Notes: generated from the sequence alone by a model not told the origin. Positions 1-4,669 are shown, numbered from the stretch's first letter. The stretch is 4,669 nt of DNA from a virus (IMGVR_UViG_3300000289_000097), one strand, 5' to 3'. Made by a program: numbers and translations.

Positions 1-2762
1 AAACGTCTTGGTGCGGCGGATGTGGATAAATGGGCGCTGTATGTCATCGGCCAGTACTGCGACCAGTCAGTGCCGGACGGCTTTGGCGGCACGGAGCCGC
101 GCATCACCTGTAATGCGTACCTGACCACACAGCGCNNNNNNNNNNNNNNNNNNNNNNNNNNNNNNNNNNNNNNNNNNNNNNNNNNNNNNNNNNNNNNNNN
201 NNNNNNNNNNNNNNNNNNNNNNNNNNNNNNNNNNNNNNNNNNNNNNNNNNNNNNNNNNNNNNNNNNNNNNNNNNNNNNNNNNNNNNNNNNNNNNNNNNNN
301 NNNNNNNNNNNNNNNNNNNNNNNNNNNNNNNNNNNNNNNNNNNNNNNCGCGCCGTTCCGCTACAGCTTCAGCGCCCTGAAGGACCGCCATAATGCCGTTG
401 AGGTGAACTGGATTGACCCGAACAACGGCTGGGAGACGGCGACAGAGCTTGTTGAAGATACGCAGGCCATTGCCCGTTACGGTCGTAATGTCACGAAGAT
501 GGATGCCTTTGGCTGTACCAGCCGGGGGCAGGCACACCGCGCCGGGCTGTGGCTGATTAAAACGGAACTGCTGGAGACGCAGACCGTGGATTTCAGCGTG
601 GGTGCTGAAGGGCTTCGCCATGTACCGGGCGATGTCATTGAAATCTGCGATGATGACTATGCCGGTATCAGCACCGGTGGTCGCGTGCTGGCGGTGAACA
701 GCCAGACCCGGACGCTGACGCTCGACCGTGAAATCACGCTGCCATCCTCCGGTACCACGCTGATAAGCCTGGTTGACGGAAGTGGCAATCCGGTCAGCGT
801 GGAGGTCCAGTCCGTCACCGACGGCGTGAAGGTAAAAGTGAGCCGTGTTCCTGATGGCGTTGCCGGATACAGCGTATGGGGGCTGAAGCTGCCGACGCTG
901 CGCCAGCGCCTGTTCCGCTGCGTGAGTATCCGTGAGAACGACGACGGCACGTATGCCATCACCGCCGTGCAGCATGTACCGGAAAAAGAAGCTATCGTGG
1001 ATAACGGGGCGCACTTTGACGGCGACCAGAGCGGCACGGTGAATGGTGTCACGCCGCCAGCAGTGCAGCACCTGACTGCCGAAGTCACCGCAGACAGCGG
1101 GGAGTATCAGGTACTGGCCCGCTGGGACACGCCGAAGGTGGTGAAGGGCGTGAGTTTCATGCTTCGCCTGACCGTGGCAGCGGATGACGGCAGTGAGCGG
1201 CTGGTCAGCACGGCCCGGACGACGGAAACCACTTACCGCTTCACACAACTGGCTCTGGGGAACTACAGGCTGACAGTCCGGGCAGTAAATGCGTGGGGGC
1301 AGCAGGGCGATCCGGCNNNNNNNNNNAACTGGCGCTGGGAAACTACAGGCTGACAGTCCGGGCGGCAAATGCCTGGGGGCAGCAGGGCGATCCGGCATCG
1401 GTATCGTTCCGTATTGCCGCACCGGCAGCGCCGTCGCGGATTGAGCTGACGCCGGGCTATTTTCAGATAACCGCCACGCCGCATCTTGCGGTTTATGATC
1501 CGACGGTACAGTTTGAGTTCTGGTTCTCGGAAAAGCGGATTGCGGATATCAGGCAGGTTGAAACCACAGCACGCTATCTTGGCACGGCGCTGTACTGGAT
1601 AGCCGCCAGTATCAATATCAGGCCGGGCCATAATTATTATTTTTACGTTCGCAGTGTGAACACCGTTGGCAAATCGGCATTCGTGGAGGCTGTTGGTCAG
1701 CCGAGTGATGATGCATCCGGCTATCTGGATTTTTTCAAAGGCGAGATAGGGAAAACCCATCTGGCTCAGGAGCTGTGGACGCAGATTGATAACGGTCAGC
1801 TTGCGCCTGACCTGGCTGAAATCAGGACGTCCATAACGGATGTCAGCAATGAAATCACACAGACCGTCAATAAGAAACTGGAAGACCAGAGTGCAGCGAT
1901 CCAGCAGATACAGAAGGTTCAGGTTGATACAAATAATAATCTGAACAGCATGTGGGCTGTGAAGCTGCAGCAGATGCAGGACGGACGCCTTTATATCGCG
2001 GGTATCGGTGCCGGTATTGAGAACACCCCCGACGGCATGCAGAGTCAGGTGCTGCTGGCGGCAGACAGGATTGCGATGATTAATCCTGCAAATGGCAACA
2101 CAAAACCGATGTTTGTTGGTCAGGGTGATCAGATATTCATGAATGAAGTGTTCCTGAAATATCTGACGGCTCCCACCATTACCAGCGGCGGTAATCCTCC
2201 TGCATTTTCCCTGACACCGGACGGAAAGCTGACCGCTAAAAATGCAGATATCAGTGGCAGTGTGAATGCGAACTCCGGGACGCTCAACAACGTTACGATA
2301 AATGAGAACTGTCAGATTAAAGGGAAACTGTCAGCCAACCAGATTGAAGGCGATATTGTCAAAACAGTGGGTAAGGCTTTCCCGCGGGACTCCCGGGCAC
2401 CGGAGCGGTGGCCATCAGGGACCATTACCGTCAGGATTTATGACGATCAGCCTTTTGACAGGCAAATTGTTATTCCGGCGGTGGCATTCTGCGGCGCTAA
2501 ACATGAGCGGGAGAATAACGATATTTATTCGTCATGCCGCCTGATAGTGAAGAAAAATGGTGCTGAAATTTATAACCGTACCGCGCTGGATAATACGCTG
2601 ATTTACAGTGGTGTTATTGATATGCCAGCTGGTCACGGCCACATGACGCTGGAGTTTTCGGTGTCAGCATGGCTGGTAAATGACTGGTATCCCACAGCAA
2701 GTATCAGCGATTTGCTGGTTGTGGTGATGAAGAAAGCCACCGCAGGCATCAGTATCAGCTGA
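1..2762 (+). CDS. J: Host specificity protein J (central tail fibre / tail tip protein), 5'-partial and interrupted by assembly gaps
   Basis: Frame-1 ORF is open from base 1 (no upstream stop; the track's start at 22 is a GTG inside the ORF). Translation ([45 protein letters not shown] ... [119 protein letters not shown] ...) matches my recollection of phage lambda J nearly residue for residue. Reading continues after the 1317-1326 gap in frame 3 ([32 protein letters not shown] ... [38 protein letters not shown] ...) to TGA at 2760-2762. Frame 1 becomes frame 3 only because of the duplicated flank plus 10 N (80 bp); removing one copy and the gap restores a single frame. Expected position immediately upstream of lom. 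Confidence 0.9.
136..347. other. Assembly gap (212 N) inside J
   Basis: Run of 212 N. The J reading frame is identical on both sides of the run (ORF 22..1353 reads through as X residues), so the gap length is frame-compatible. Confidence 0.95.
1247..1396 (+). repeat. Near-identical 70-bp direct duplication (1247-1316 and 1327-1396) flanking a 10-N gap; probably unmerged overlapping contig ends
   Basis: Copy A aactggctctggggaactacaggctgacagtccgggcagtaaatgcgtgggggcagcagggcgatccggc versus copy B aactggcgctgggaaactacaggctgacagtccgggcggcaaatgcctgggggcagcagggcgatccggc: 5 mismatches in 70 bp. Both encode the same J segment ([12 protein letters not shown][V/A]NAWGQQGDP). Confidence 0.8.
1317..1326. 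other. Assembly gap (10 N placeholder)
   Basis: Ten N between the two duplicated copies; 10-N runs are commonly used as scaffold placeholders of unknown size. Confidence 0.9.
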
Positions 2763-2829: not shown

Positions 2830-3429
2830 ATGCGTAAAGTTTGTGCAGCCATTTTGTCCGCAGCCATCTGTCTGGCCGTATCCGGTGCGCCTGCATGGGC
2901 GTCTGAGCAGCAGGCCACACTGAGCGCAGGGTATCTTCATGCCCGTACGAACGCTCCCGGCAGCGATAATCTGAACGGGATTAACGTGAAATACCGTTAT
3001 GAGTTTACGGACACGCTGGGGCTGATTACGTCATTCAGTTATGCCAACGCTGAAGATGAGCAAAAAACGCATTACAGCGATACCCGCTGGCATGAAGATT
3101 CCGTGCGTAACCGCTGGTTCAGCGTGATGGCGGGGCCGTCTGTGCGCGTGAATGAATGGTTCAGCGCGTATGCGATGGCGGGTGTGGCTTACAGCCGTGT
3201 GTCGACTTTCTCCGGGGATTATCTGCAGGTGACCGACAATACGGGGAAAACGCACGATGTGCTGATCGGAAGTGATGACGGTCGCCACAGCAACACGTCT
3301 CTGGCGTGGGGGGCTGGCGTGCAGTTTAACCCGACCGAATCCGTGGCCGTTGATGTCGCTTATGAAGGTTCCGGCAGTGGCGACTGGCGCACTGACGGTT
3401 TCATCGTGGGTGTCGGTTATAAATTCTGA
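2830..3429 (+). CDS. lom: Lom outer-membrane protein (Ail/Lom/PagC/Rck family 8-stranded beta-barrel); prophage lysogenic-conversion gene
   Basis: Complete ORF, ATG 2830 to TGA 3427-3429, 199 aa. N-terminal signal peptide [24 protein letters not shown] followed by SEQQ (AxA cleavage motif). C-terminal ...[11 protein letters not shown], with terminal aromatic residue typical of outer-membrane beta-barrels. Translation is near-identical to lambda Lom as I recall it (e.g. [80 protein letters not shown]). Canonical position between J and stf. Confidence 0.95.
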
Positions 3430-3455: not shown

Positions 3456-3482
3456 AGCCCGCCGGTTCAGGCGGGCTTTTTT
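3456..3482 (+). terminator. Rho-independent terminator downstream of lom
   Basis: Stem AGCCCGCC (3456-3463) / GGCGGGCT (3470-3477) with loop GGTTCA, followed by a T-run (3477-3482), starting 26 nt after the lom stop codon. Confidence 0.75.
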
Positions 3483-3493
3483 GTGGGGTGAAT

Positions 3494-4669
3494 ATGGCAG
3501 TAAAGATTTCAGGTGTACTGAAAGACGGCACAGGAAAACCGGTACAGAACTGCACAATCCAGCTGAAAGCAAAACGTAACAGTACCACGGTGGTGGTGAA
3601 CACGCTGGCCTCAGAAAATCCGGATGAAGCCGGGCGTTACAGCATGGACGTTGAGTACGGTCAGTACAGCGTTATTCTGTTGGTGGAAGGATTCCCGCCG
3701 TCACATGCCGGGACCATCACCGTGTATGAAGATTCCCGACCCGGTACGCTGAATGATTTTCTCGGTGCCATGACGGAGGATGATGCCCGTCCTGAGGCAC
3801 TGCGCCGTTTTGAACTGATGGTGGAAGAGGTGGCGCGTAACGCGTCCGCGGTGGCACAGAACACGGCAGCCGCGAAGAAGTCAGCCAGCGATGCCAGCAC
3901 ATCAGCCCGTGAGGCGGCAACCCATGCGACTGATGCTGCAGGCTCAGCACGCGCAGCCAGCACGTCAGCCGGACAGGCTGCTTCGTCGGCTCAGTCAGCG
4001 TCTTCCAGCGCAGGAACGGCATCAACAAAGGCCACTGAAGCATTAAAAAGTGCTGCCGCTGCAGAGTCCTCAAAAAGCGCGGCGGCTACCAGTGCCGGTG
4101 CGGCGAAAACGTCAGAAACGAATGCGGCAGCGTCACAACAATCAGCAGCCACTTCTGCATCCACCGCGACCACGAAAGCGTCAGAAGCAGCCACTTCAGC
4201 ACGGGATGCGTCGGCTTCAAAAGAGGCGGCAAAATCATCAGAAACGAACGCATCATCAAGCGCCAGTAGTGCCGCTTCCTCGGCAACGGCGGCAGGAAAT
4301 TCCGCGAAGGCGGCAAAAACGTCCGAGACGAACGCTAAGTCTTCTGAGACGGCAGCGGGACAGAGCGCCTCAGCTGCGGCAGGCTCAAAAACAGCGGCTG
4401 CATCATCTGCCAGCGCCGCGTCAACAAGTGCCGGGCAGGCCTCAGCCAGTGCCACCGCCGCCGGAAAATCGGCAGAAAGCGCCGCATCATCCGCTTCAAC
4501 AGCCACAACGAAGGCTGGCGAAGCCACTGAACAGGCCAGCGCAGCAGCGAGTTCTGCTTCCGCAGCGAAGACATCCGAAACGAACGCGAAAGCGTCGGAA
4601 ACCAGCGCAGAATCCTCAAAAACGGCTGCCGCATCGTCCGCCAGTTCGGCGGCGTCATCGGCATCATCG
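3494..4669 (+). CDS. stf: Side tail fibre protein Stf, N-terminal 392 codons (3'-partial, continues beyond window)
   Basis: ATG at 3494 preceded by a G-rich stretch GTGGGGTGA (3483-3491); open frame with no stop to the window end (1176 nt = 392 codons). The ORF track omits it only because it lacks a stop. N-terminus MAVKISGVLKDGTGKPVQNCTIQLKAKRNSTTVVVNT.ASENPDEAGRYSMDVEYGQYSVIL...GFPPSHAGTITVYEDS.PGTLNDF matches my recollection of lambda Stf (orf-401), followed by the characteristic Ala/Ser/Thr-rich repeat region. Correct position downstream of lom. Confidence 0.9.
   Translation, partial: MAVKISGVLKDGTGKPVQNCTIQLKAKRNSTTVVVNTLASENPDEAGRYSMDVEYGQYSVILLVEGFPPSHAGTITVYEDSRPGTLNDFLGAMTEDDARPEALRRFELMVEEVARNASAVAQNTAAAKKSASDASTSAREAATHATDAAGSARAASTSAGQAASSAQSASSSAGTASTKATEALKSAAAAESSKSAAATSAGAAKTSETNAAASQQSAATSASTATTKASEAATSARDASASKEAAKSSETNASSSASSAASSATAAGNSAKAAKTSETNAKSSETAAGQSASAAAGSKTAAASSASAASTSAGQASASATAAGKSAESAASSASTATTKAGEATEQASAAASSASAAKTSETNAKASETSAESSKTAAASSASSAASSASS
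3840..4669 (+). repeat. Low-complexity Ala/Ser/Thr-rich coding repeat region within stf with recurring K-[TS]-S-E-T-N-A units
   Basis: Repeated DNA units aaaacgtcagaaacgaatgcg (~4106), aaatcatcagaaacgaacgca (~4231), aaaacgtccgagacgaacgct (~4315) and aagacatccgaaacgaacgcg (~4568) encode AKTSETNA / KSSETNA / AKTSETNA / AKTSETNA, embedded in SA-rich sequence (ASTSAGQAASSA, AATSAGAAKT ...). Confidence 0.8.

Follow-up and report, generated by a model that had tools for sequence, protein, structure and literature searches.

Gene content of the window and identity of J

The stretch of DNA analysed here (the window, 4669 nt) carries three genes on the plus strand, in the order J, lom and stf, as in a lambda-like prophage. 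J, a lambda-like tail-tip gene assigned by Pfam and by alignment to PDB 8IYK, is represented by its 3' two-thirds, from position 1 to a stop codon at 2762. It is followed by lom (2830–3429; Pfam Ail_Lom) and by the start of stf, the side tail fibre gene, which runs from 3494 to the end of the window (Pfam phage_tail_N). The presence of lom and a side tail fibre gene downstream of J is the synteny of lambda-like gpJ loci, and was confirmed in the reference loci. An exact-protein look-up found the Lom protein on record in 1802 blocks. Terminator-like GC-rich hairpins with T runs are located on the plus strand after the J stop (2781–2800) and after the lom stop (3456–3477). In addition, the N-terminal region of stf (4000–4669) contains several families of imperfect direct repeats, of 16–45 nt, in Ala/Ser/Thr-rich coding sequence.

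Two runs of N interrupt J, one of 212 N at 136–347 and one of 10 N at 1317–1326, and they divide the plus-strand gene into three pieces. Piece A (1–135), upstream of the 212-N gap, is in frame 1 within an ORF at 22–1353 and aligns to annotated gpJ in four fetched reference loci (L001–L004); in L003 the alignment ends at position 2075. Contig B (348–1316) contains the Pfam families Phage-tail_3 and Ig_J. Contig C (1327–2762), which is in window frame 3 up to the stop, contains Ig_J_second, Phage_Tail_Tip and Ig_GpJ_C.

The references examined comprised complete Escherichia coli genomes, contigs from NCBI, ENA and Logan, and IMG/VR prophages. Contig B is 99.1% identical to J of E. coli C11 and C10, and contig C is 99.3–99.5% identical to gpJ of NCCP 15734, PM7 and others. 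Each of the two contigs matches J in about 4,560–4,575 of the 5,426 complete E. coli genomes, and J-like sequence occurs at a median of two places per complete genome, with a maximum of 13–15. The gene is annotated as intact gpJ, of 3480 nt in L001, L002 and L004 and of 1159 aa in L077–L081. In the reference nearest to contig B (L003; E. coli C11, NZ_CP010133), J is split at 3749–4926 by an IS3-family transposase, and the annotation records two partial pseudogenes in its place.

The locus resembles that of phage lambda J (PDB 8IYK; J02459 nt 15505–18903) in its Pfam domain order and in the gene order J, lom, stf. Contig B, however, reaches only 95.9% DNA identity with lambda, and the central and C-terminal parts diverge; J is 1159 aa long in the closest relatives, as against 1132 aa in lambda.

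The spacing of pieces A and B is 146 nt in all four references (2075 to 2222 in L001–L003). Because the scaffold gap at 136–347 is 66 nt longer than this true spacing, its 212 N are to be read as a scaffolding estimate (insert size) and not as a measured length. No overlap between the flanks of this gap was detected. The J frame survives across it only by virtue of the 66-nt excess being divisible by three, and lengths within J taken from this scaffold are not a reliable basis for inference, on account of the estimated gap.

The 70-nt repeat at the 10-N gap and the reading frame

Contig B ends, and contig C begins, with a copy of the same 70-nt segment on the plus strand. Copy 1 (1247–1316) encodes the equivalent of lambda J residues 682–705, and copy 2 (1327–1396) differs from it by five mismatches, so that 65 of 70 positions are identical. 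The mismatches (copy 1/copy 2) are T/G at 1254/1334, G/A at 1260/1340, A/G at 1284/1364, T/C at 1286/1366 and G/C at 1293/1373; four are synonymous, and the remaining one is a Val to Ala change. Both copies directly adjoin the N run, copy 1 with its last base at 1316 and copy 2 with its first base at 1327. When overlap lengths of 12–200 nt were tried across the gap, 70 nt alone reached at least 85% identity. The chance of at least 65 identities in 70 positions is 2e-33 per pair and about 2e-26 when all pairs in the window are considered.

The ORF at 22–1353 is in frame 1 and that at 1293–2762 is in frame 3, and this apparent frameshift arises because one copy and the Ns together add 80 nt. Deletion of either copy with the Ns yields a single open frame of 777 codons, from 349 to the stop at 2762, which is colinear with the 3480-nt gpJ. 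The merged J product contains all five Pfam families (Phage-tail_3, Ig_J, Ig_J_second, Phage_Tail_Tip and Ig_GpJ_C) above their cut-offs, and it aligns to lambda J (PDB 8IYK chain J) over residues 383–1131 with E = 0. A preliminary description of this DNA had reported a 70-bp J segment with five mismatches on both sides of a 10-N gap, and every detail of this proved accurate. Its further statements, that one copy plus the gap amounts to 80 bp and shifts J from frame 1 into frame 3, and that deletion of one copy and the Ns restores J, agree with the ORFs described above, the second of them whichever copy is removed.

In every reference J examined, contigs B and C overlap by exactly 70 nt. Three complete genomes have records in the match tables of both contigs, and the overlap is found in each: in NZ_CP122629 (B at 1190204–1191172, C at 1191103–1192605), in NZ_CP027255 (B at 4407341–4408309, C at 4408240–4409742) and in NZ_CP159531 (B at 31574–32542, C at 30141–31643). 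The same 70-nt overlap is present on the four fetched references (L001–L004) and on ten contigs that encode an identical Lom protein (L076–L085). The true distance between the two contigs across the placeholder of 10 N (1317–1326) is therefore −70 nt.

A 23-nt core common to both copies occurs twice in the window. It occurs once in 144 of 158 fetched loci and twice in none of the 158. Genome contigs scanned for this 23-mer yielded 21 loci, all of them lacking a second copy and none approaching 100% identity with the window; three IMG/VR scans likewise did not turn up the source assembly. Among IMG/VR contigs, exact copy 1 was found in 70 and exact copy 2 in 29, with one match in each contig; no IMG/VR contig or IMG genome identifier appears in both of these lists. 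By comparison with its relatives, the segment would be present once per J gene in this organism.

Two J alleles and the origin of the apparent frameshift

The two copies of the segment correspond to two different natural alleles of J, here called X-type and Y-type. Copy 1 has no mismatches to the closest full-length J genes (L001, L003, L004 and L076–L081), and the last 461 nt of contig B (856–1316) have none to L001, L003 and L004; contig B thus carries the X-type allele at its 3' end. The start of contig C is a Y-type patch (1327–1412, plus strand), with seven SNPs relative to the closest full-length J genes. Compared with L001 and L004, contig C is mismatched at 1334, 1340, 1364, 1366, 1373, 1397 and 1412, and next at 1712; seven of its eight mismatches therefore fall within the first 86 of 1503 nt (P = 1.5e-8). 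The region 1327–1476, made up of copy 2 and the 80 nt after it, is matched at 100% in the complete genomes of IAI39, CE10, VR50 and others, and 187 records match it at 99% or more. Y-type loci match contig C exactly up to 1480 and diverge from it at 1481, 1490, 1571 and beyond; contig B, upstream, is distinguished from them at 1245, 1233 and 1155. A construct that runs from contig B, with copy 1, into the downstream sequence matches many genomes at 99.4% identity, its two mismatches being the Y SNPs at 1397 and 1412, whereas the same construct with copy 2 reaches 98.1% at best. The lambda allele differs from both copies, and from copy 2 at three of 70 positions.

Because the copies match two different natural J alleles, the five mismatches are not errors. 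The preponderance of synonymous changes is the pattern of natural allelic variation. Since copy 1 and copy 2 are distinct natural alleles, two real J templates must have been present among the reads. The second allele most likely comes from a second lambdoid prophage in the same genome, which is the simplest source because E. coli genomes hold J-like sequence at a median of two and up to 13–15 places; both alleles would then belong to one genome. The suggestion in the preliminary description that the mismatches reflect reads of at least two near-identical lambdoid prophages is thus borne out as regards the two alleles, and their residence in one genome is the probable reading. Its term 'collapsed' is imprecise: what lies at the repeat is an unmerged overlap (a 'negative gap') rather than a demonstrated collapse.

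Contig C changes from one allele to the other within a short distance. Over 1327–1520, the window haplotype is Y-type at 1334–1412 and X-type at 1481 and 1490. This region has no exact match in the 5,426 complete E. coli genomes, the best matches (99.5%) being STEC1575, with one mismatch, and a 45.9-kb record, NZ_CP148365; likewise, 1397–1500 is matched exactly in none of 164 loci. From 1413 on, contig C is identical to L001, L003, L004, L077, L078 and L081, all of which match the end of contig B exactly, and we infer that the two contigs go together from this point on. Contig C may open with an assembly chimera that arose within the 68-nt stretch (1413–1480) common to X and Y, which the lack of an exact match for 1327–1520 or 1397–1500 fits, or its start may be a rare natural mosaic or recombinant.

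Contig B is itself patchy. The part at 348–470 matches lambda-type loci exactly, 560–720 matches another set (L042, L044, L054, L079, L097 and L144) and 860–1316 matches a third set of loci. This patchiness fits natural mosaicism of J, and further mixing during assembly is possible.

Taken with the single copy in relatives, these data make it very probable that the apparent frameshift in J is an assembly artefact, arising from an unmerged 70-nt contig overlap with two J alleles among the reads. The window would be a scaffold of a short-read draft assembly crossing a prophage J, in which the end of contig B (1316) and the start of contig C (1327) would cover the same 70 nt of the gene. The reads would have included the X-type allele, sampled where contig B ends and beyond the first 86 nt of contig C, and the Y-type allele, sampled by those 86 nt. 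The two contigs would have been left unmerged because their ends differ at five of 70 positions, and a scaffolding step, given only order and orientation, may then have entered its shortest placeholder, 10 N, at a gap whose true length is −70 nt. The apparent frameshift would stem from the 80 nt added in this way, and the DNA itself would be neither duplicated nor frameshifted here. Directly observed are the overlap geometry, the single copy in relatives, the natural allele that each copy equals and the return of an open J frame; the behaviour of the assembler is what we infer. Contig C starts 2 nt past the X/Y SNP at 1245 and contig B ends just before the SNP at 1397. From the spacing of the X/Y SNPs, no single k of a de Bruijn (k-mer) graph fits both contig ends, and for this reason the assembler is not named. 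Three 10-N gaps in an unrelated metagenome scaffold (L160) have no flanking duplicates, and a run of 10 N therefore does not always mean an overlap.

Artefacts of this kind have been described. With ALLPATHS-LG, contigs that overlap are recorded as negative gaps, and SOAPdenovo2 frequently puts gaps between such contigs (PMC5368935). As in those cases, adjacent contigs here share bases with an N run between them, the flank is duplicated and reading frames are broken. The present overlap differs from typical negative gaps in being non-identical, with five mismatches, because the prophage gene is multi-copy and the two contig ends represent different alleles of it. Breaks within homogeneous lambdoid prophages have also been reported for short-read E. 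coli assemblies (PMC7175801). The contig breaks in the window are similar: they fall in a conserved lambdoid structural gene, found at a median of two, and up to 13–15, places per genome. They differ in their setting: the published case concerns O157:H7/NM strains and Stx phages, and the prophage here has a lambda-type tail module with lom and stf.

The overlap artefact could be real and contigs B and C could nonetheless derive from different J copies, either through a mis-join or through a natural Y-to-X mosaic, in which case the merged ORF would be a hybrid absent from the organism. The opening of contig C with 86 nt of Y-type sequence where contig B closes in the X-type speaks for this, as do the natural mosaicism of J, in which different stretches match different sets of loci exactly, and the STEC1575 haplotype, which is one mismatch (99.5%) from 1327–1520. 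Set against these points are the identity of contig C from 1413 with the six loci that are exact for the end of contig B, and the failure of 1327–1520 and 1397–1500 to match exactly in any complete E. coli genome or any of the 164 loci, respectively; a derivation from different J copies is conceivable, if on the whole unlikely. The second allele might instead have come from a mixed culture, from cross-sample contamination or from a metagenomic bin. A mixed sample and a second prophage cannot be told apart by sequence alone, foreign lambda-type DNA is common in public assemblies, and no IMG genome in the retrieved lists has both exact alleles. The carriage of several J-bearing prophages is nevertheless the norm for E. 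coli (median two, up to 13–15), and copy 2 differs from the lambda allele at three of 70 positions, a difference for which lambda contamination was rejected as the source of copy 2. A mixed origin of the reads is thus distinctly doubtful. It is highly improbable that the contig break marks a real recombination or gene-conversion tract (about 1247–1412) between co-resident lambdoid prophages, which would leave a J allele with a Y patch in an X background, or, more rarely, a true 80-nt duplication inactivating J.

It is harder still to reconcile the data with a real tandem duplication of about 80 nt, which would make J a frameshifted pseudogene with the gap inside it by coincidence, and very little weight can be given to it. 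The sequence as written does have two copies, the 10 N hide bases, and disrupted J genes exist (the IS3 insertion in C11 and the split or truncated J in L159–L164). A recent duplication, however, predicts copies that are identical or have diverged at random, and the copies here are two pre-existing alleles at all five sites, with the allele match going on at 1397 and 1412, outside the repeat. Moreover, both copies end exactly at the gap, which would need a coincidence, and a tandem arrangement is found in none of the 144 related loci or the 99 IMG/VR contigs with either exact allele. The preliminary description had already ranked a real duplication as the less likely course, and the assignment of each copy to a different pre-existing allele strengthens that view. 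Almost nothing speaks for reading the two copies as a functional pair, for instance the template repeat and variable repeat of a diversity-generating retroelement, or for placing a programmed frameshift site in J. Receptor-binding proteins are the usual target class of such retroelements, and J belongs to this group. The mismatches (T/G, G/A, A/G, T/C and G/C) are not adenine-specific, though, and mostly leave the protein unaltered; the segment lies in the mid-gene Ig_J domain and not in the C-terminal receptor-binding domain; the window contains no reverse transcriptase ORF; and a second copy is absent from all relatives. On the mixed mismatches, the Ig-like location, the lack of a reverse transcriptase and the single-copy relatives, both forms of this proposal were excluded.

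As written, the sequence would lead gene callers to split J into two fragments or to label it a frameshifted pseudogene, and the prophage would be called tail-defective by tools for prophage completeness or host range. The merged ORF is open through the 10-N junction, in keeping with the earlier warning that a pseudogene call here would be artefactual. The accompanying view that J is probably intact stands for that junction, to which its scope is confined by the 212-N gap and the missing 5' end of the gene. The merged sequence is preferable for annotation, with the junction flagged as a possible join of two J alleles. The significance of the case is one of annotation quality only: it is an artefact of known kind in an ordinary lambdoid J and involves no new biology.

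Disrupted J genes and lambda-type DNA in public records

The 368-aa product that extends from a GTG at 1656 to the J stop at 2762 is found in 32 blocks of the protein collection. Its matches are only to other truncated or split J loci, at up to 99.2% identity. In L159, L163 and L164, this ORF is a remnant of J that lacks the 5' part and directly follows a shortened portal gene; L160 and L161 have a J split in two, of which the ORF forms the second half. These remnants and splits (L159–L164) indicate that genuinely disrupted J genes of this lineage exist. In exact-protein look-ups, neither the frame-3 ORF with its X residues nor the ORF that starts right after the gap was on record.

Lambda-type J DNA was also encountered in assemblies of unrelated bacteria (L005–L010, L012, L014, L015, L017–L021, L024 and L025), the hosts including Neobacillus, Kitasatospora, Leeuwenhoekiella, Bradyrhizobium, Pseudomonas, Shewanella, Oceanobacillus and Desulfosporosinus, among others. 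The contig names of such records often give a coverage of about 1x. These occurrences are likely to represent contamination of public records with lambda DNA. In one of them, L005, positions 3000–8000 are 100% identical to phage lambda (J02459, 15409–20409).
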